Shown piece by piece: positions 2,507 through 62,937 of a stretch of DNA of 64,000 nt (its first letter is position 1; each line of letters starts with the position of its first letter). A model generated the notes under the pieces. The model ran no database searches, was not told the DNA's origin, and saw nothing but the letters and a program-made list of their open reading frames with translations. Origin of the DNA: Escherichia phage HX01; the sequence record NC_018855.1; one strand, 5' to 3'. A program made the position numbers and the translations under genes.

Positions 2507-3100
2507 ATGAACACACTGAAGAAACTTGTTGAATTCATCCGCACTAAACTGGGTACTGCTATGGCTAAAAATCTGACTGTAGAAGAACAGTATAACGCAG
2601 CTGCAGATAAGTTGATTACCCAAATCAAAGAACTAAAAACGGCTTCTGTTAAATCTATTAATGAAGAAAAACGTATTCGCGAACTTGTTAATGAAAAGAA
2701 CAAGCAAGCCGCTTCTAAGGAACGTGAAATTCGTAAGCTCCTGGCTGAAGGACAAGATGTTACCATGCATGCTAAGCTTGGTCTTCTGTATCGTCGAACG
2801 GCTGAACAACTTAATACAAAAGCTGACGGGTATGCCGCTATGCGAATTGAAATTGCTCGTAAGGTGGTTGAACTTGACGATGCTCGTCAGAACCTGGCAA
2901 TCAAACTCGAATACATTCGTGAAACTCGAGCAGCCAATGCCCTTGGTATCTCTACGGCTGATGATGTAATTGAAATCGCTGCACTAACTAAGGTTGATAT
3001 TGAAGACACTCTGACTCGTGTTGAAACGTTCAATGGCACTCCAACCGGTGTCGAAACCACTTCTGCTGATGTACAAGAATATATTAACTCTTTGAAATAA
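2507..3100 (+). CDS. hypothetical protein
   Basis: ORF track 2492..3100; first ATG at 2507. Confidence 0.6.
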
Positions 3101-11227: not shown

Positions 11228-11532
11228 TGACCACTATTGAAGTTTTTGAGTATTGTTATAACAGCCCAGTATGCAATAAAAGGGCTCTTGTAGAAAATTA
11301 TGAGATTTACCATTTTAAACCTAAACGATACCGTTTGACTAAAGGTCCGTTCGCAGGGCAGCAGGTTCTTTGTACTGCTCCTAATGCACGGTTGATGACT
11401 AGTATTCCGCATTTCAAAATGGAATTTATTGATGGGCCATTTAAAGGATTAATCACTCAAAGTTTAATGGCGTTTAATTCCGACCCATTTTTGATTAAAG
11501 AAAAAACTTGGATAAATTTATTTTCTAATTGA
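11224..11532 (+). CDS. hypothetical protein
   Basis: ORF track 11161..11532; ATGA-coupled start 11224. Confidence 0.5.
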   Translation: MMTTIEVFEYCYNSPVCNKRALVENYEIYHFKPKRYRLTKGPFAGQQVLCTAPNARLMTSIPHFKMEFIDGPFKGLITQSLMAFNSDPFLIKEKTWINLFSN

Positions 11533-11538
11533 GGTTAT

Positions 11539-11901
11539 ATGAAAGCATATCAAATTCTTGAAGGTGTACATAAAGGCACTATTTATTTTGAAGACGGTAC
11601 TCAAGCCCGGATTATCGTCTCTAAGACTTTTAAAGAAGACGCTATTGTAGACCCGGAAATTTTCTACGGTTTGAATGCCCGTGAAATTGAAATTGAACAT
11701 CAACCTAAAGTTAAAATTGAAGGTGGTCAACACCTGAACGTTAACGTTCTGCGTCGTGAAACTCTGGAAGATGCAGTTAAGCATCCGGAAAAATATCCGC
11801 AGCTGACCATCCGTGTATCCGGTTATGCAGTTCGCTTTAACTCTCTGACTCCGGAACAGCAGCGCGACGTTATCGCTCGGACATTTACCGAGAGTCTATA
11901 A
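11539..11901 (+). CDS. grcA: autonomous glycyl-radical cofactor (GrcA/YfiD-like)
   Basis: C-terminal [63 protein letters not shown] with glycyl-radical signature RVSGY; a T4 YfiD homolog (Y06I) is known. Confidence 0.85.
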
Positions 11902-12125
11902 TGGCTAAATTGATTATAGAAGGGTCTGAAGATGTTTTAAAATGTTTTGCCGCCTGGTTTAGTTGCTCAGGCGAGCAATCATTCATTGAAGCATTTAGAA
12001 CGGGTGATATTACTGGAAAATATCCGTCAACCGATATCACTGTACGCGGATATGGTATTAATGAGCCTATCCAATTGGTCGAATATGACCTTGCCACCGA
12101 TGAGGAAATTCCTTATGTCGATTGA
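11901..12125 (+). CDS. hypothetical protein
   Basis: 74-aa ORF, ATGA-coupled. Confidence 0.5.
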   Translation: MAKLIIEGSEDVLKCFAAWFSCSGEQSFIEAFRTGDITGKYPSTDITVRGYGINEPIQLVEYDLATDEEIPYVD

Positions 12126-12360
12126 AGACATCAAAGGCTACAAGCCGCATACCGATGATAAAATCGGTAAAGTGAACGCTATTAAAGATGCCGAAGTTCG
12201 TTTAGGACTTATTCTGGACGCCCTGGCAGAAGAAGCATTATCAGAAAATACTCCTGAAGCTCTGACGGCTTTGTCCCAACTTAACTGTGCTAAAGAGCGT
12301 CTAAAGGAAGCTAGTATGTGGGCGTGTCGTGCGGTATTTCGACCTGAGGAAAAATACTAA
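12115..12360 (+). CDS. hypothetical protein
   Basis: ORF track 11947..12360; start set to ATG 12115 after SD GAGG. Confidence 0.45.
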
Positions 12361-12659
12361 TGGCTCAAATCCTATCAGGCTTTGGAACTCATTATGAAGC
12401 ATCTCGACGCATAACTGAAAGCAATCCTTTTGGCCTTGTTCCGAAGCACAAGAAAATTCAAAGCCTTGATGACTTTGAGAATCGCCTATGGGCCCTCTTT
12501 AATGAGTACAAGGCATATCTGAAAGAAGACGCTGACGATTGTCTTGAAGAAGATGAGATTGCGTATTATGAACAACGCCTTGAACAGCTCAAGAACTTCC
12601 ACCAGGTTCGTGACGAAGTATCTAAAGCAGTTAAAAAGTTAATTCCTTTCAAAGAGTAG
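12360..12659 (+). CDS. hypothetical protein
   Basis: 99-aa ORF. Confidence 0.55.
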
Positions 12660-12708
12660 TTTACTTCTCCTCTAGTTGTGTTACTATAGACCTGTCAACT
12701 AGAGGAGA
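12659..12708 (+). promoter_or_regulatory. early promoter with inverted repeat covering the regB ribosome-binding site
   Basis: GTTTAC 12659-12664; perfect 13-bp inverted repeat TCTCCTCTAGTTG 12666-12678 / CAACTAGAGGAGA 12696-12708. Confidence 0.6.
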
Positions 12709-12715
12709 AATCAAA

Positions 12716-13174
12716 ATGACTATCAATTCAGACGTTTTTATCCGCCGTAATAAACTCCGTCGAATCTTTGAAACGGAGTTCCGCAAAATAAATGCCAGTA
12801 TAAAAGATGCTGCAAAGTCTCTTGGACTACCAGGCTTTCATATCAAGTATTCTCAACATCTCTTAGATCGTGCCATCCAGAGAGAAATAGATGAGAACTA
12901 CGTTTTTGAATTATTTCGTAAAGTAAAAAATCATGTTAAAGAAGTTGCAGAATTTTTATCAATGCCGGCACGTCCAGATGTTGATGAAGATTTTGTCGAA
13001 GGTGTTGAATATCGCCCAGGCCGTTTAGAAATAACTGACGGAAATCTTTGGTTAGGACTTACAGTTTGTCGCGAAAATCCTGCATTCAAAATGAAGACTC
13101 TTCAATGCAGAATGGCTATTATTAACAGTAAACGACTACCAGGAAAAGCTTCTAAAGCAGTGATTAAAATCTAG
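12716..13174 (+). CDS. regB: RegB site-specific endoribonuclease
   Basis: MTINSDVFIRRNKLRR...KYSQHLLDRAIQREIDE...CRMAIINSKRLPGKASKAVIK matches T4 RegB from memory. Confidence 0.9.
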   Translation: MTINSDVFIRRNKLRRIFETEFRKINASIKDAAKSLGLPGFHIKYSQHLLDRAIQREIDENYVFELFRKVKNHVKEVAEFLSMPARPDVDEDFVEGVEYRPGRLEITDGNLWLGLTVCRENPAFKMKTLQCRMAIINSKRLPGKASKAVIKI

Positions 13175-13182
13175 AGGTAAAC

Positions 13183-13725
13183 ATGAGAAAAGCACTACTC
13201 GCTGGTCTATTTGCTCTTTCATTATCAGCACATAGCTCCGAGCATACTTTTAGTAATGTCCAACTCGATAACTTGAATTATGCTTATCAGTTTGGGGAAC
13301 AGTTTTCTAAGGACGGAAAATTTAAAACGCATGAAAATATGCATAAGAAAGGACTTGGATACATAATGGCCGCAATACTATGGCAGGAATCATCTGCCGG
13401 TATTAATCTTAAAGATAAGAAAGGTCACCATGCGTATGGAATGTTCCAAAACTATCTACCAACAATGAGGGCAAGAGTTAACCAGCTTGGTTATAATATG
13501 ACTGATGCCCAAATTAAGAAAATGCTATCTAAGCGGTCTAATTCAGCAAGATGGGCTTATATCGAATTTTCTTATTGGTTAAATATACATAACGGGGATA
13601 TAAGGAAAGCCTTATCCTCATATAATGCGGGATGGAAGACAAGTGCTGGAAGTAAATATGCTTCTGAAGTCCTAGAAAAGGCCAATTACCTTAAATCAAA
13701 TAAACTACTGGAAATAAAAGAATGA
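13183..13725 (+). CDS. secreted lytic transglycosylase-like protein
   Basis: Signal peptide; WQESS and SYNAGW motifs resembling SLT domain. Confidence 0.6.
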   Translation: MRKALLAGLFALSLSAHSSEHTFSNVQLDNLNYAYQFGEQFSKDGKFKTHENMHKKGLGYIMAAILWQESSAGINLKDKKGHHAYGMFQNYLPTMRARVNQLGYNMTDAQIKKMLSKRSNSARWAYIEFSYWLNIHNGDIRKALSSYNAGWKTSAGSKYASEVLEKANYLKSNKLLEIKE

Positions 13726-14069
13726 CCAAAATGTTGGCTTTAATAGTTGGCTTGGTTTCATTTAACGCTCTTGCTAATACTACATATACTGATGTAACGG
13801 AGTATACAAACAGAACGGCGTCTGATTATTGTGGTAAAAGTCAAGAGTGTAAAGTAGATTTTTCACAAAAATTGTTATATGCGTATAAAGACGGAGAAAA
13901 AGATGGGGCGTCTAGTAGGTTCAAGGCGTCTACCTTAATTAAAAGATACTATAAAAAATGGCAAATATTAGAATGCTCGGTGGCGGAACCTAAAGATAAG
14001 GCAGCATGCAATTCTATGGTGGACCGTCTAGTTGACTCTTATAATAGAGGACTTGCAGCAAGTGATTAA
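13722..14069 (+). CDS. small secreted protein (T4 vs position, 115 aa)
   Basis: Signal-peptide-like N-terminus; assignment by position and length only. Confidence 0.5.
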   Translation: MTKMLALIVGLVSFNALANTTYTDVTEYTNRTASDYCGKSQECKVDFSQKLLYAYKDGEKDGASSRFKASTLIKRYYKKWQILECSVAEPKDKAACNSMVDRLVDSYNRGLAASD

Positions 14070-14529
14070 AAACTATATCAAGGGCGATATTGTCGCCCTG
14101 TTTTCTAAAGGTAATAATATTGCTCATGGGTGCAATTGTTTTCATACAATGGGCGCCGGTGTAGCAGGTCAATTAGCAAAGGCTTATCCAAAAATTTTAG
14201 AAGCCGATAAACTTCAAACCGAATTCGGAGACGAGTCTAAACTTGGGACTTATTCGGTTTATGAAAAATATTTTAAGACCCATAAAGCTTATTGCTTTAA
14301 TCTTTATACACAGTTTGAGCCGGGACCTAATTTTGAGTACTCTGCTTTAATGAATTGTATAATAGAATTAAATGAATTCGGAAAAAATAAGATAACAAAG
14401 CCTGTAATTTATATGCCAAGAATTGGTGCGGGTATTGGTGGCGGAAACTGGGATGTCATCGAAGAGATTTTAGATACGTATTCCACTAAACTAGAAATTG
14501 TGATTGTTGATTGGGAACCATTATTATGA
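14062..14529 (+). CDS. macro-domain protein (ADP-ribose binding/processing family)
   Basis: GDIVALFSKGNNIAHGCNCFHTMGAGVAGQLAKAYP resembles macro-domain N-terminal motifs; no in-frame ATG, GTG 14062 assumed. Confidence 0.55.
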   Translation: MIKNYIKGDIVALFSKGNNIAHGCNCFHTMGAGVAGQLAKAYPKILEADKLQTEFGDESKLGTYSVYEKYFKTHKAYCFNLYTQFEPGPNFEYSALMNCIIELNEFGKNKITKPVIYMPRIGAGIGGGNWDVIEEILDTYSTKLEIVIVDWEPLL

Positions 14530-14738
14530 ATATACATTATCCACATCCATATGACCCAAAGAATAAGGCAGTAATTATTCGTCAATGGGAACGCATTTGT
14601 CGTACCAAATGTCCAATTAATAGTCCACATGATGTAGATAAAGACTACATCGGAACATTCGTTGAATATACCTTTATTGATAAGAAAGGCCGTAAACAAC
14701 ATGTAGAAGAATATTGCTTAAAGGTGACATGGTTATGA
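14526..14738 (+). CDS. hypothetical protein
   Basis: ATGA-coupled start. Confidence 0.5.
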   Translation: MNIHYPHPYDPKNKAVIIRQWERICRTKCPINSPHDVDKDYIGTFVEYTFIDKKGRKQHVEEYCLKVTWL

Positions 14739-14920
14739 GTTTAAGTAAAGAACAAAAAGACAGACTCTTTTCTCTTATCCACGAAGTTATGGATAAAAAT
14801 AGCGAATTGGAAAAAGTTTGTAATGAATGCGGTCCTTTTAGCGCAAACGAGTACGAAGAACTTTCTAAAGAATTCGATAATAAAGAACAAGAACTCATTG
14901 ATTATATAAATTCCTTATGA
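14735..14920 (+). CDS. hypothetical protein
   Basis: ATGA-coupled start. Confidence 0.5.
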   Translation: MSLSKEQKDRLFSLIHEVMDKNSELEKVCNECGPFSANEYEELSKEFDNKEQELIDYINSL

Positions 14921-15114
14921 TTACTCGCGAACAAAAGAACGAAATATTATTTTTAGTTGGTGAAATTATTAGTTTAGAAAAGGATTTGTCTTTTGAATTA
15001 TCTTCTGATTATGGAGATGCCGAAACATATTACGAATTAGTAAAATCTATCGATAAAGCTGAAAATGATTTGGAAACATATTTAGAAAATTTAACTAAGG
15101 ACTCTTATGGCTAG
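14917..15114 (+). CDS. hypothetical protein
   Basis: ATGA-coupled start. Confidence 0.5.
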   Translation: MITREQKNEILFLVGEIISLEKDLSFELSSDYGDAETYYELVKSIDKAENDLETYLENLTKDSYG

Positions 15115-15688
15115 TTTAATTTTTACATATGCCGCTATGAACGCTGGTAAGTCTGCTTCATTACTTACTGCCGCACATAACTATAAAGAACGTGGCATGG
15201 GTGTATTAGTTCTTAAACCGGATATTGATACTCGCGATTCAAAAGGTGAAATAGTCTCTCGTATTGGTATTCGTCAGGACGCCAATATAATTACAAAAGA
15301 CATGGATATCTTTGAATTCTATAAATGGGCTGCAGCACAAAAGGATATTCATTGTGTATTTGTTGACGAAGCTCAGTTCTTAACTACTGAAAAGGTGTAT
15401 CAACTTAGTCGTATTGTTGACGTATACAATGTGCCGGTAATGGCATATGGACTACGAACAGATTTTAAAGGTAATCTATTTGAAGGTTCTCAAGCATTAA
15501 TGGCTATTGCCGATAAGCTTGTTGAACTTAAAGGTGTCTGTCATTGCGGTAAAAAAGCCACAATGGTAGCTAGAGTCACGGAAGATGGACTTCCAATTAC
15601 AGATGGCAGTCAAATTGAAATTGGTGATACCGATAGATATGTGTCATTATGCCGGAAGCATTGGAATGATTTGACAGGGTTGTTATAA
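15107..15688 (+). CDS. tk: thymidine kinase
   Basis: MASLIFTYAAMNAGKSASLL...VDEAQFL...CHCGKKA matches T4 Tk. Confidence 0.95.
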   Translation: MASLIFTYAAMNAGKSASLLTAAHNYKERGMGVLVLKPDIDTRDSKGEIVSRIGIRQDANIITKDMDIFEFYKWAAAQKDIHCVFVDEAQFLTTEKVYQLSRIVDVYNVPVMAYGLRTDFKGNLFEGSQALMAIADKLVELKGVCHCGKKATMVARVTEDGLPITDGSQIEIGDTDRYVSLCRKHWNDLTGLL

Positions 15689-15715
15689 ATACTAATATCT
15701 AACCAAGAGGTATAT

Positions 15716-15928
15716 ATGCAGCAATTAAACGAAAGACAACTTCGTAATCTTACTGTAACCCAATTGGACGAAATCCGAAGAGAAATAGGACATTCTATTT
15801 CTCATTTAAACGAGGATATCCGTCAAACTGGTTCTAAAGCTGATTATACACGCAAGCGCAAGCTGGAAAAATACCTCACAGATGTTAAGGCCGTCCAAAG
15901 GCGAAAAATAAATACTGGCCAAAATTAA
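15716..15928 (+). CDS. hypothetical protein
   Basis: 70-aa ORF, SD AGAGG. Confidence 0.5.
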
Positions 15929-15940
15929 CAGGAGGCCTAT

Positions 15941-16243
15941 ATGGCCTTAAGAGCGATAGCTGTCATGGCGATGCTGGGGTTTTTTGCAGCAACAACTCCT
16001 AACGTTGGTACTGCGTACACCGACCCATATTTTGATAACTTTATGGAATCAGGGATTAAAAACGTATATACTTTGTTTGAAATTCAAAATGTCGAGAATT
16101 CTGAAAAATTCTATAAGTATATGGCAAAGCATTACAAAAATAGCCCCTGTGATGATGCATTTGAATGCCATGAACAAGGCATAAAAACTGCCAGACAATT
16201 TGCCGAGTTCATGAAAATAAAATTAGAGCCTACATCTATCTAA
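15941..16243 (+). CDS. rI: lysis-inhibition regulator RI
   Basis: MALRAIAVMAMLGFF...DPYFDNFMESGI...KIKLE matches T4 RI from memory. Confidence 0.85.
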   Translation: MALRAIAVMAMLGFFAATTPNVGTAYTDPYFDNFMESGIKNVYTLFEIQNVENSEKFYKYMAKHYKNSPCDDAFECHEQGIKTARQFAEFMKIKLEPTSI

Positions 16244-16249
16244 TTTACT

Positions 16250-16278
16250 AGCCCCTTCCTTACGGTTGGGGCTTTTTT
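16250..16278 (+). terminator. rho-independent terminator
   Basis: AGCCCC..GGGGC then TTTTTT; near copy of the 816-846 terminator. Confidence 0.7.
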
Positions 16279-16288
16279 GCATTTAGCA

Positions 16289-16340
16289 GTTTACTTCTCC
16301 TCAGGTTGTGTTATAGTAGACCTTACTTACTAGAGGAGAA
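16289..16340 (+). promoter_or_regulatory. early promoter with inverted repeat covering the ribosome-binding site
   Basis: GTTTAC 16289-16294; TCTCCTC / GAGGAGA inverted repeat. Confidence 0.55.
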
Positions 16341-16344
16341 CGTT

Positions 16345-16524
16345 ATGTCACGTAAAGAAAAGATTTCTAAGTTGATGTTTTTGATTGAAGAGTATGCTAA
16401 TGCGGTATCTGATTGGGAAAATGCTCATGGTTGCGAAGATGGAGACATCGACATTAACAGAGCTATGAAAAAGATGGCCGAAGCCCACACCGAATTGCAA
16501 ATGTATGTTAACGAGATTATGTGA
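16345..16524 (+). CDS. hypothetical protein
   Basis: ORF track 16306..16524; ATG 16345 after SD GAGGAG. Confidence 0.5.
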   Translation: MSRKEKISKLMFLIEEYANAVSDWENAHGCEDGDIDINRAMKKMAEAHTELQMYVNEIM

Positions 16525-55720: not shown

Positions 55721-56371
55721 ATGATTTATTATATGCACAAAAATGCGCCATTTAAATATGGTAAATTTCCTAATGCACAATGTTATAATATAACGCCGAA
55801 CGAAAATAATAACGGATATCATATTGGTGTAATTTTTGTAATTGTTAAAGATAACGAAATCGTTGCCTGGGCAGATTTTAAAGGTACAACATATGATGTT
55901 AATCCTGTGCCTTTCACATATTACAATATAATGGATTTGGCATATGATTATAATTGGTTTAATCATGACACGTTGGCTCATATTGAAGGTGTAGGATTTG
56001 ACATCTCTTATTCTAGCTATTCATTATGTCCTATGAGCCGAGCTCACGGTAAAGATGCCTCATATTTTTCATTTCGGAAACGTGTAAACTTCAAACGTAG
56101 TACAGAGTATGTTGGTGGACTCTTTGTTAAAGATAATAAAATAACCCGTATTAGTTATCCTCTAAGTGTAGGTCAAAAAGATGTTGATGTTGATTTAGAC
56201 TTAACCGAAAATAACATTAATCATATTGCTTCTGTATATTTTGATATCGATGAAAAAATTGTAGTGTGTGGATACGAATTACCACCTGAAGAAAAGGCTG
56301 AAGCAATTGAAGTCGAATTAGAAATTTCTGTTGACGACCAAATATTTAATGCATTTATGAATCGAGGTTAA
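55721..56371 (+). CDS. hypothetical protein
   Basis: ORF track 55712..56371; ATG 55721. Confidence 0.55.
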   Translation: MIYYMHKNAPFKYGKFPNAQCYNITPNENNNGYHIGVIFVIVKDNEIVAWADFKGTTYDVNPVPFTYYNIMDLAYDYNWFNHDTLAHIEGVGFDISYSSYSLCPMSRAHGKDASYFSFRKRVNFKRSTEYVGGLFVKDNKITRISYPLSVGQKDVDVDLDLTENNINHIASVYFDIDEKIVVCGYELPPEEKAEAIEVELEISVDDQIFNAFMNRG

Positions 56372-60787: not shown

Positions 60788-61369
60788 ATGACATGTCAAT
60801 CTGAACTTCAAGAACGTGAATACCTAACAAATCTGATTGATAGCAAATTCACCCACCAAGAACAAAACATTCTCTGGGCTTGCACCGATTCTAAGGAAGA
60901 CCCGGATTTCCACTATGAATTAGACCATCTTGTTCGTAAGCATATGACTTCTACAGTACCAGTAGAACTCTACCGTGGTGTAACTCCAGAAGAAGTAGAA
61001 CGTCTTTCCCTTCTTTCTGTTGGATGCCATTGGTCTCCTGGACGAGTAACATCGTTCACAACTGATTTCAGTACAGCTCGTCAATTCTCTGGGAGATGGG
61101 AATATCAGACGTACACTATTCTTAGTCTCAGGAATGCTCCATTCATTTTTGATTACTACCAAAACATGGTTAATATTGTACTCGCCGGAAAGAACCCTAA
61201 GCATGTTATGGAAGAAACACGTGTTGATGTCCTAGATATGATTGAATCTGAACAAGAGTACATGGTTTCAAGTATCTCTAGATTTGAGATTGTGGAAATC
61301 GAAGAGTTAGAGTATGACCCTTTGTCTCGAGTATACAAAATCATTCACTTAAAGATGTTGAATTTTTAG
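60788..61369 (+). CDS. modA: ADP-ribosyltransferase (ModA/ModB family), copy 1
   Basis: R-S-E type motifs: LYRG, SFTTDFSTA, ESEQEY; position before srd/dda. Confidence 0.7.
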   Translation: MTCQSELQEREYLTNLIDSKFTHQEQNILWACTDSKEDPDFHYELDHLVRKHMTSTVPVELYRGVTPEEVERLSLLSVGCHWSPGRVTSFTTDFSTARQFSGRWEYQTYTILSLRNAPFIFDYYQNMVNIVLAGKNPKHVMEETRVDVLDMIESEQEYMVSSISRFEIVEIEELEYDPLSRVYKIIHLKMLNF

Positions 61370-61428: not shown

Positions 61429-62037
61429 ATGTTTATGCCGTATAACGAGTGTGAAATTGAAGAAATGGTTCGTCGTGCTCAAAACCCCGAATATCAAGAT
61501 GTATTGCAGTACGAAATTGATAGTCAATTCAGCGACATTGAACAAAGTGTACTGTGGCAGTGTATGGAAAACAAGCCAGACTGTATTCAACAGGAGTTAA
61601 GTTCAATCGTTCGTAGAAATTGGACGTCTTCTGTTCCTGAGACAATGTATCGTGGAATCTCTAAGAAAACTATGGCCACACTCGATGATAAAGGTATTGG
61701 TAGTATTATTAAATTTGACAGAGTAATGAGCTTCAGCCCAGTGTTCGGTGTAGCACGTAACTTTGCTTCGTATAATTTTTACGGAACATTTAATATGTTC
61801 TGCATCAAAGATGCACCATTTGCTTTCAACTTCCGTGAACATATGCTTAACATGATTCTGGCTGCGCCATCTTGTGAGTTCAATGGAGCTTTCCCTGAAG
61901 CGACAAGACGGTCTAATGCTAGACTTATATCTGACGAATGTGAATTTATGCTCCCTATAGGGACTACACTGCGTGTAGATTCTATTATTCAGGATGGACG
62001 TTATACAATCTGGAATCTGTCTATTGTCAGTTACTGA
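61429..62037 (+). CDS. modB: ADP-ribosyltransferase (ModA/ModB family), copy 2
   Basis: MYRG, SFSPVFGVA, SDECEF; paralog of the preceding gene. Confidence 0.7.
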   Translation: MFMPYNECEIEEMVRRAQNPEYQDVLQYEIDSQFSDIEQSVLWQCMENKPDCIQQELSSIVRRNWTSSVPETMYRGISKKTMATLDDKGIGSIIKFDRVMSFSPVFGVARNFASYNFYGTFNMFCIKDAPFAFNFREHMLNMILAAPSCEFNGAFPEATRRSNARLISDECEFMLPIGTTLRVDSIIQDGRYTIWNLSIVSY

Positions 62038-62190: not shown

Positions 62191-62937
62191 ATGTTATCAA
62201 ATAATAAAATTAACAAAATTAATCGTCGTCTTGACCACACCAGAGCTTCTGCGAAGAGACGCTCTAAGGATTTTAACTTAGACTTTAATTACCTTAAAAA
62301 CATTCTTGATCAAAAGGTCTGCGCTTACTCAGGTGAATCTTTCAATAACTCTGTTGAAGGTGAGAAATTATCCTTAGAACGTTTTAATAATGATATCGGC
62401 TACATTAAAGGTAATGTTATCCCAGTTAAGAAAAAATATAACACGGCTCGTTCTGATTTAACATTAGAAGAACTTATTGAGAAACGTGATGCCATTGCAA
62501 GACGTATCGCTAATCCTTCTGTTCGTAAAGTAGAGAAACTTAATCTCGACGAGAAGAAATGGGCCCAAATTAAAAAGGTTTATGGTACTATTTTAAAAAT
62601 CCGAGCAAAACGTGAAAATCGTGTTAAGCATATGGCGAACATGATGAAAAATCAACCTTTATCTAACGAATCTAAACTTAGAATTGTTGCTTTGAAAGCA
62701 CGCATTAACGGCTCACATCAAGCAGAAGGCCATGAACTTACTAAACTCAACGTTCTTCTTAAAGGCTCTGACTGGAAAACTAAAACTAAATTAACTGACG
62801 CTGAATCGCTTTTCGATACATATGATAAAGTTATCCAAGGTCTGCAACGTTTTGAAAAGATTGGTTTCATTGGTAAATTAAAATTGAAACGTGGCTTACC
62901 ACTTAGCGCATCATTATTCCAACTGGTTAAAGGTTAA
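62191..62937 (+). CDS. srd: Srd-like protein (by position and size)
   Basis: 248 aa upstream of dda; contains LSLERFNNDIGYIKGNV, possibly HNH-like; unverified. Confidence 0.5.
   Translation: MLSNNKINKINRRLDHTRASAKRRSKDFNLDFNYLKNILDQKVCAYSGESFNNSVEGEKLSLERFNNDIGYIKGNVIPVKKKYNTARSDLTLEELIEKRDAIARRIANPSVRKVEKLNLDEKKWAQIKKVYGTILKIRAKRENRVKHMANMMKNQPLSNESKLRIVALKARINGSHQAEGHELTKLNVLLKGSDWKTKTKLTDAESLFDTYDKVIQGLQRFEKIGFIGKLKLKRGLPLSASLFQLVKG

Follow-up and report, generated by a model that had tools for sequence, protein, structure and literature searches.

The closest described relative of the gene analysed here is tk.4 of phage T4, whose orthologs have been reported to match the macro/A1pp domain since 2006 (PMC1524935). 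A biological role emerged in November 2025. T4 transposon sequencing identified tk.4 as the single gene depleted specifically on DarTG2-expressing hosts, a clean knockout was DarTG2-sensitive, and T4 growth without DarTG2 did not require the gene (bioRxiv 10.1101/2025.11.20.689424). In that preprint, the gene is renamed adfM, for anti-DarT factor, macrodomain, and the authors say only that enzymatic removal of ADP-ribose from DNA by T4 AdfM "seems likely". In an earlier report, the resistance of T2 and T4 to DarTG2 persisted after loss of the NADAR enzyme AdfN, whose activity is confined to DarT1 guanine adducts (PMC11825919).

Two further systems are informative. In the chimallivirus phiKZ, the stand-alone macrodomain gp104, independently given the name AdfM, also counters DarTG2; it strips DarT2-made ADP-ribose from thymidine of single-stranded DNA in vitro, protects the phage, and is imported into the phage nucleus (Cell Rep 2026, PMC13309987). 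The Streptomyces coelicolor macrodomain SCO6735 cleaves thymidine-linked ADP-ribose on DNA, with its Q85A and Q85E variants being inactive and a water-activated mechanism having been proposed (PMC9411070).

Here, a gene from Escherichia phage HX01 (NC_018855.1) is compared with these systems; the window is the whole stretch of DNA analysed, 64,000 nucleotides in length. The combined sequence, model and analogy evidence gives a probability of about 80% to the reading that this gene is a tk.4/adfM ortholog, translated from a GTG start, and encodes an orphan-antitoxin-type counter-defence enzyme against DarT2. The locus itself is already known, in that the same coding sequence with its GTG has been deposited and the role of the T4 ortholog was assigned in 2025.

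A syntenic ortholog of T4 tk.4

The gene and its two neighbours are arranged as follows.

13722..14069, + strand: vs (valyl-tRNA synthetase modifier), identified from its open reading frame, PHROG 1256 and the annotations of relatives
14062..14529, + strand: tk.4/adfM ortholog, encoding a stand-alone macrodomain protein of 155 residues, read from a GTG to the TGA at 14527-14529
14526..14738, + strand: tk.3 homolog, 70 residues, DUF7202 (Pfam PF23832, E 1.6e-38)

Over 13183-15688, identity to Escherichia phage moskry (Mosigvirus, Tevenvirinae) reaches 98.4%, and in that phage the coding sequence equivalent to 14062-14529 is annotated "macro domain protein" (QHR76569.1); phage Mizar has the same coding sequence. 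The T4 counterpart is tk.4 (NP_049723.1), described in RefSeq as "phosphatase; contains A1pp phosphatase motif". The window protein and T4 Tk.4 align over their full length without gaps and are identical at 131 of 155 positions (85%, E 7e-105). At the nucleotide level dN/dS is 0.07 with a dS of 1.25, and so low a ratio indicates a functional gene maintained by strong purifying selection. The gene lies between vs and tk.3 in the window, moskry, Mizar and T4, and the order regB-vs.1-vs-tk.4-tk.3-tk.2-tk.1-tk is identical in the window and T4. This is the syntenic Mosigvirus ortholog of T4 tk.4, now adfM.

Homologs are widespread. With the window protein as tblastn query they were found in 2798 phage records, from phages of many genera, including Pseudomonas, Vibrio, Acinetobacter and Erwinia phages. 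In one Acinetobacter phage, the homolog adjoins a nicotinamide phosphoribosyltransferase gene.

The gene overlaps its neighbours on both sides. Upstream, the TAA stop of vs (14067-14069) overlaps the tk.4 start by 8 nt (GTGATTAA); downstream, the tk.4 stop and the tk.3 ATG are fused in an ATGA (14526-14529). Such tight overlaps on either side suggest translational coupling of tk.4 to the flanking genes, in which case ribosomes ending vs would probably reinitiate at GTG 14062. The vs/tk.4 junction differs from that of T4, where the two genes meet in an ATGA overlap; in the window the TAA falls five bases downstream of the start. Here, the spacer between the Shine-Dalgarno sequence and the start is 1 nt shorter than in T4, and the vs frame is therefore shifted and ends at the next stop. 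This single-nucleotide difference amounts to one indel near the tk.4 start, outside the gene. A scan of 11500-16500 for sigma-70 promoters returned 16 sites where chance alone predicts 15.9, a number that carries no signal; the middle and late promoter classes of T4 are outside the scope of the tool.

Macro fold and ADP-ribose-binding loops

The original prediction placed a macro-domain protein at 14062-14529, and this assignment is borne out by profile searches as well as by the coordinates of the moskry and Mizar coding sequences. The protein matches Pfam PF01661 (Macro) with 28.1 bits, above the gathering cut-off of 22 bits (E 2.2e-6, profile positions 2-117 of 118). It also falls in PHROG 335 (E 4.7e-67), a family labelled "phosphatase".

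Fold prediction, which had been set beforehand as the refuting test, returned a macro fold. The AlphaFold2 model, built with 71 homologs, has a pLDDT of 95.2 and a pTM of 0.91. In the PDB, the best 50 Foldseek matches consist entirely of macrodomains or designs based on one, the top matches having a probability of 1.0 and TM-scores of at most 0.80; Poa1p, TARG1, BT1257 and DarG head this group. As modelled, the protein has the three-layer alpha/beta/alpha macro fold.

Both ADP-ribose-binding loops, N-x(4)-M-G-x-G and P-x-I-G-x-G-x-x-G, are present and align with the corresponding loops of DarG, TARG1 and SCO6735. Within them, the 71 homologs show little or no variation at N25, M30, G31, G33, P119, I121, G122 and G124. 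In profile comparisons the best PDB match is BT1257 (E 5.4e-17), followed by TARG1 (1.3e-15), M. tuberculosis DarG (3.6e-14), SCO6735 (6.3e-14) and Poa1p (9.8e-14). The near-equal distance to DarG, TARG1, SCO6735/BT1257 and Poa1p means that similarity alone cannot tell the substrate. A separate candidate identity, the YmdB/MacroD-type O-acetyl-ADP-ribose deacetylase named in the JGI label of some homologs, was rejected, as the close PDB matches include no MacroD-type structure.

Translation start at a GTG codon

The initiation region contains two features.

14047..14051, + strand: Shine-Dalgarno sequence GAGGA, read from the sequence, 10 nt before the GTG
14062..14064, + strand: GTG initiation codon, positional homolog of the T4 tk.4 ATG in aligned start contexts from 50 loci

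On the + strand, a single open frame extends from 14032 and closes with the TGA at 14527-14529. Three in-frame codons that could initiate translation precede the conserved domain, TTG 14032, TTG 14053 and GTG 14062, and there are no others as far back as the in-frame stop upstream. An in-frame ATG does not occur before codon 30 (14149-14151), within the HTMGAG motif; being inside the conserved ADP-ribose-binding loop, it cannot serve as a start. The claim that the gene has no usable in-frame ATG is therefore correct.

Comparison with T4 locates the start. When the T4 region (cGAGGAttgagtactagATGATTGTAAAATATATCAAGGGC) is set against its window counterpart (aGAGGActtgcagcaaGTGATTAAAAACTATATCAAGGGC), GTG 14062 occupies the exact codon of the T4 tk.4 ATG and follows an identical GAGGA, from which it is separated by 10 nt, versus 11 nt for the ATG in T4. 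In the Mizar record, a ribosome-binding site is annotated at the equivalent AGGA. In the 50-locus comparison, ATG is the start codon of almost all lineages and is followed by I-x-x-Y-I-K-G-D. All six Mosigvirus-type copies have GTG (the window, moskry, Mizar and the loci L004, L005 and L006), and in L013, which belongs to a separate lineage, a GTG was acquired independently. A pattern scan of viral contigs for the start context found three known contigs only, leaving the count of GTG copies at six.

It is scarcely credible that translation begins instead at an upstream TTG (14032 or 14053), or that the ATG was lost and the gene is decaying. In both the window and moskry, the open frame extends upstream to 14032 and includes two in-frame TTGs. 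However, in three close relatives, Mizar (L002), L004 and L005, the frame is closed by a TAG at -6 to -4, two codons upstream, which leaves the GTG as the sole possible start in those phages; L006, in turn, has lost the TTG at -9. Together, these differences indicate that the upstream TTGs are not a conserved start. TTG 14053 also lies just 1 nt past the Shine-Dalgarno sequence, and nearly all other lineages use ATG at the position of GTG 14062. Decay is contradicted by the dN/dS of 0.07 and by a fully conserved active site.

The comparative evidence thus decisively favours initiation at GTG 14062 over an indel, and the GenBank annotators of moskry and Mizar picked the same start. In the aligned contexts, the GTG is an unremarkable A-to-G substitution in a conserved initiation codon, and no indel inside the macrodomain gene is required to explain the missing ATG. 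The original proposal of "a GTG start or an indel" is accordingly retained in its first half and dropped in its second.

Active-site residues

Three elements of the putative active site were assigned from alignments.

14134..14136, + strand: Asn25 codon, in the HGCNC motif (hhalign family alignment against DarG; MAFFT)
14311..14313, + strand: Gln84 codon, in the NLYTQ motif (hhalign and MAFFT alignments)
14416..14451, + strand: codons of P119-W130 (PRIGAGIGGGNW), the glycine-rich diphosphate-binding loop (alignments to TARG1, BT1257, DarG and SCO6735)

Asn25 aligns with the active-site Asn22 of Thermus aquaticus DarG and Asn23 of phiKZ AdfM; the residue roles for these two active sites are those given in PMC13309987. 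Gln84 is invariant in the 71 family members. The same column holds a lysine in DarG (Lys80 in T. aquaticus and M. tuberculosis), in TARG1 (Lys84) and in phiKZ-type AdfM (FPTKD), and a glutamine in BT1257 and SCO6735 (Q85). The SCO6735 sequence was recovered by a BT1257 query and then aligned with hhalign, and the number Q85 is obtained from the chain numbering by subtracting a presumed tag of 20 residues, in agreement with PMC9411070. In the glycine-rich loop, P119, I121, G122 and G124 are invariant, and Gly126 stands at the position of TARG1 Asp125. When only the last 96 residues were searched against the PDB, the alignment was confined to the glycine-rich loop.

The presence of Asn25, together with an invariant Gln84 in place of the catalytic lysine, makes SCO6735-like chemistry most likely. 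By analogy, the T4-type family most likely works as SCO6735 is proposed to do, as a glutamine-type ALC1-like macrodomain acting via an activated water. The invariant glutamine of T4-type AdfM, as opposed to the catalytic lysine of DarG, TARG1 and phiKZ AdfM, appears to be a modest new point: the difference is unmentioned in the accessible parts of both AdfM papers (bioRxiv 10.1101/2025.11.20.689424 and PMC13309987). It is relevant to the design of active-site mutants and to mechanistic work.

Proposed role against DarT2

The only NCBIfam match of the window protein, and likewise its only PADLOC match, is DarG, in each case to the macrodomain portion (NCBIfam NF048014, 31.9 bits, model positions 4-146 of 338; PADLOC, positions 4-145 of 329). 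Identity as a DarG equivalog was considered and rejected. The score is far below the NF048014 equivalog cut-off of 250 bits, and the catalytic lysine, the DarT-binding domain and a linked toxin gene are all missing.

In a host carrying DarTG2, the DarT2 toxin would ADP-ribosylate thymidines in single-stranded phage DNA and thereby block replication. The phage macrodomain would then behave as an orphan antitoxin, hydrolysing the bond between ADP-ribose and thymidine and restoring the DNA; both this enzymatic step and its chemistry are deduced from related proteins. The original prediction had called the gene relevant to host ADP-ribosylation defences, and this is substantiated by the DarTG2 sensitivity of the T4 tk.4/adfM knockout. 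The genetics come from T4 only; extended by analogy to the Mosigvirus ortholog, they predict a role in DarTG2 resistance there. Since catalytically dead SCO6735 inhibits DarT by binding, protection need not be purely enzymatic.

Alternative functions

The binding activity just mentioned raises the possibility of a stoichiometric antitoxin mimic that mainly binds and blocks DarT2 and does not hydrolyse modified DNA. Dead SCO6735 (Q85A) inhibits DarT better than dead DarG or dead TARG1 (PMC9411070), and two other phage factors, AdfA and AdfB, work through binding to DarT (PMC11825919). Against this, the window protein, of only 155 residues, has no counterpart of the C-terminal domain with which DarG binds DarT, and the invariance of N25, Q84 and the glycine-rich loop across a wide phage family fits an enzymatic site better. 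PhiKZ AdfM also works enzymatically (PMC13309987). Taken together, these points make a purely binding role quite unlikely. The phosphatase label leads elsewhere, to an enzyme that processes ADP-ribose-1''-phosphate (Appr-1''-p) or another free ADP-ribose metabolite, as Poa1p does, with a small molecule as substrate. RefSeq for T4 and PHROG 335 carry this label, and the A1pp match goes back to 2006 (PMC1524935). Poa1p is the top Foldseek match (TM 0.80) and is also a strong match in sequence (E 1e-8). His22 and Thr29 of the window protein correspond in the alignment to His23 and Ser30 of Poa1p; these two Poa1p residues are mutated in deposited structures, and their roles are taken from the PDB entry titles alone. 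The nicotinamide phosphoribosyltransferase gene beside the Acinetobacter phage homolog would also suit a metabolic function. The name, however, stems from domain transfer rather than from an assay. Many macrodomains have Appr-1''-p phosphatase activity as a side reaction in vitro, and T4-infected cells have no known source of Appr-1''-p, both of which count against this function. It would also leave unexplained the DarTG2-specific phenotype of the T4 knockout (bioRxiv 10.1101/2025.11.20.689424), and is considered very unlikely.

The original prediction further connected the macrodomain with ADP-ribosyltransferases of the phage itself, citing two Mod-family genes. Two such open reading frames are indeed present in the window.

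60788-61369 and 61429-62037, + strand: Mod-like open reading frames (tblastn to T4 ModB/ModA, 30-38% identity, E 1e-17 to 1e-29)

A Pfam search of these two frames gave no match. Their occurrence in the same window would allow the macrodomain to be an eraser of the phage's own Alt, ModA and ModB marks, whether protein ADP-ribosylation or ModB RNAylation of host proteins, and ADP-ribose attached to protein is likewise removed by SCO6735 and TARG1 (PMC9411070). The Mod-like genes are nevertheless some 47 kb away and in different transcription units, and the Tk.4 family is frequent in phages of many other genera. Alt, ModA and ModB form arginine N-glycosidic linkages, which TARG1/ALC1-like macrodomains are not known to cleave; these linkages are the substrates of ARH-fold enzymes, and the targets of the macrodomain class are ADP-ribose in ester linkage (Glu/Asp) or on nucleic acids. 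In addition, T4 dispenses with tk.4 when DarTG2 is missing (bioRxiv 10.1101/2025.11.20.689424). An eraser of the phage's own marks is therefore highly improbable, and the proposed link to the Mod enzymes comes down to their sharing a genome.

Implications

If the preferred reading of a DarT2-directed counter-defence enzyme is correct, the AdfM assignment extends to Mosigvirus (RB69-like) phages, for which DarTG2 resistance is predicted, and the persistent "phosphatase" label of T4 Tk.4 is corrected. A wider role, in which the T4-type glutamine macrodomain would act as an eraser of nucleic-acid or protein ADP-ribosylation beyond DarT2 damage, is tentative and on present evidence unlikely. Its substrates could include RNA or ester-linked protein marks from other host defences, or the products of the phage's own Alt and Mod enzymes. 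Were it true, such an enzyme would be the missing eraser of T4 ADP-ribosylation biology.

Comparison with known systems

The nearest known system is T4 Tk.4/AdfM, which resembles the window protein in its length of 155 residues, in N25 and Q84, and in the glycine-rich loop. The two genes differ in the start codon, ATG in T4 and GTG in the window.

Among macrodomains of known structure, SCO6735 (PDB 5e3b) and its close Bacteroides homolog BT1257 (2fg1/2afc), to which no function is assigned, are ALC1-like and share with the window protein a glutamine at the catalytic position, the absence of a Lys/Asp dyad, and the loop PRIG(A/C)G(I/L)(A/G)GG.W, with an hhalign probability of 98.4%. They differ in overall sequence (about 23-28% identity), in the motif around the glutamine (NMIGQ versus NLYTQ), and in setting, being bacterial chromosomal genes rather than phage counter-defence genes.

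Human TARG1/OARD1 and yeast Poa1p have the same ALC1-like macro fold, with TM-scores of 0.72-0.80 and identities of 23-26%. TARG1, however, carries a K84/D125 dyad where the window protein has Q84 and G126, and Poa1p is an Appr-1''-p phosphatase of 180 residues with an inserted segment.

The DarG macrodomain (T. aquaticus 5m31/5m3e, M. tuberculosis 5m3i) has the same fold, ADP-ribose pocket and asparagine (hhalign 98%), and its substrate, DarT2-modified thymidine, is presumed to be alike. In contrast to DarG, the window protein has Gln84 in place of the catalytic Lys80 and no C-terminal DarT-binding domain, and its gene has vs and tk.3 as neighbours, with no adjacent darT.

PhiKZ AdfM, the other stand-alone phage macrodomain, is DarG-like, with a catalytic lysine (K78, in FPTKD) and about 20% identity to the window protein. 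With the T. aquaticus DarG macrodomain as tblastn query, 299 phage records were returned, mostly from jumbo phages; T4-like phages were absent among 30 of these records sampled across the ranking, and from the top genus counts. By these sequence comparisons, T4-type AdfM is assigned to a different lineage from phiKZ AdfM. This suggests that two mechanistically distinct macrodomain lineages have been recruited independently against DarT2, a glutamine type in T4-like phages and a lysine type in phiKZ-like phages, a reading rated likelier than that of a broader eraser.

A hairpin within the tk.4 coding sequence

The GTG-initiated macrodomain gene tk.4 carries a terminator-like hairpin near its 5′ end:

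14081-14099, + strand: terminator-like hairpin in tk.4, AGGGCGAU-AUU-GUCGCCCU, then GUUUUCU

This element falls within codons 7-13, 19 nt past the start codon, and the predicted fold of 14036-14125 gives z = -2.75 versus shuffles. T4 tk.4 shares this palindrome, which is absent from those more distant homologs that have GDIVK. The hairpin could function as an attenuator or as an element that tunes translation or mRNA stability. Alternatively, it could be a mere by-product of the GDIVAL codons.

Variation of tk.4 among relatives

In the mutant T4 clone T4_7t1 (OL964745.1; 159.7-kb genome), tk.4 is present as two short ORFs (locus positions 473-848), each annotated 'macro domain-containing protein'. 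This disruption of the gene is in keeping with tk.4 being dispensable without DarTG2. In the homolog from IMGVR_UViG_2706796257_000001, 2 nt appear to be lost right behind the start codon as compared to its relative L013 (ATGATTAAA-ATATATC; approximately locus positions 1989-2010). Given this apparent loss, the N-terminus is out of frame with the remaining domain, owing to a frameshift or else to an error in sequencing.

Genomic surroundings and other ADP-ribosylation-related genes

Two genes near tk.4, each also found in phage moskry (MN850651.1), have public-record labels that look like annotation carry-over errors:

13183-13725 (moskry locus 1501-2043): vs.1 homolog with a signal peptide; in PHROG 600 (function unknown); labelled 'endoribonuclease RegB'
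14526-14738 (moskry locus 2844-3056): tk.3 homolog, 70 aa; Pfam DUF7202; labelled 'putative ABC transporter ATP-binding protein'

Elsewhere, the window encodes further genes related to ADP-ribosylation, with an srd homolog downstream:

55721-56371, + strand: homolog of T4 gene 61.2 (AdfA, anti-DarTG1 factor), 67% identity to T4
60788-61369, + strand: ModA/ModB-like ADP-ribosyltransferase gene 1
61429-62037, + strand: ModA/ModB-like ADP-ribosyltransferase gene 2
62191-62937: srd homolog, downstream of the two Mod-like genes

The 61.2 homolog has His at the T4 His165 position (NINHIAS), the placing of the RB69 R164H site being uncertain. The adjoining Mod-like genes were identified by tblastn against T4 ModB/ModA, with 30-38% identity; Pfam returned no domain in either ORF.

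In Acinetobacter phage vB_AbaM_14/CRR8 (PV611675.1), a Tk.4-type macrodomain gene (85607-86062) adjoins a nicotinamide phosphoribosyltransferase gene. This proximity hints that the family is tied to NAD+ salvage or ADP-ribose metabolism in some phages.

Comparison with known macrodomains

PDB comparisons show that the structural-genomics protein BT1257, which has no assigned function, is closely homologous to SCO6735 (E 2e-53), and the two have the VANMIGQHG motif in common. Because of this similarity in sequence, BT1257 is probably also a thymidine-ADP-ribose hydrolase. The same comparisons place a Gln likewise in the column of SCO6735 Gln85 in the human ALC1/CHD1L macro domain (AQH).
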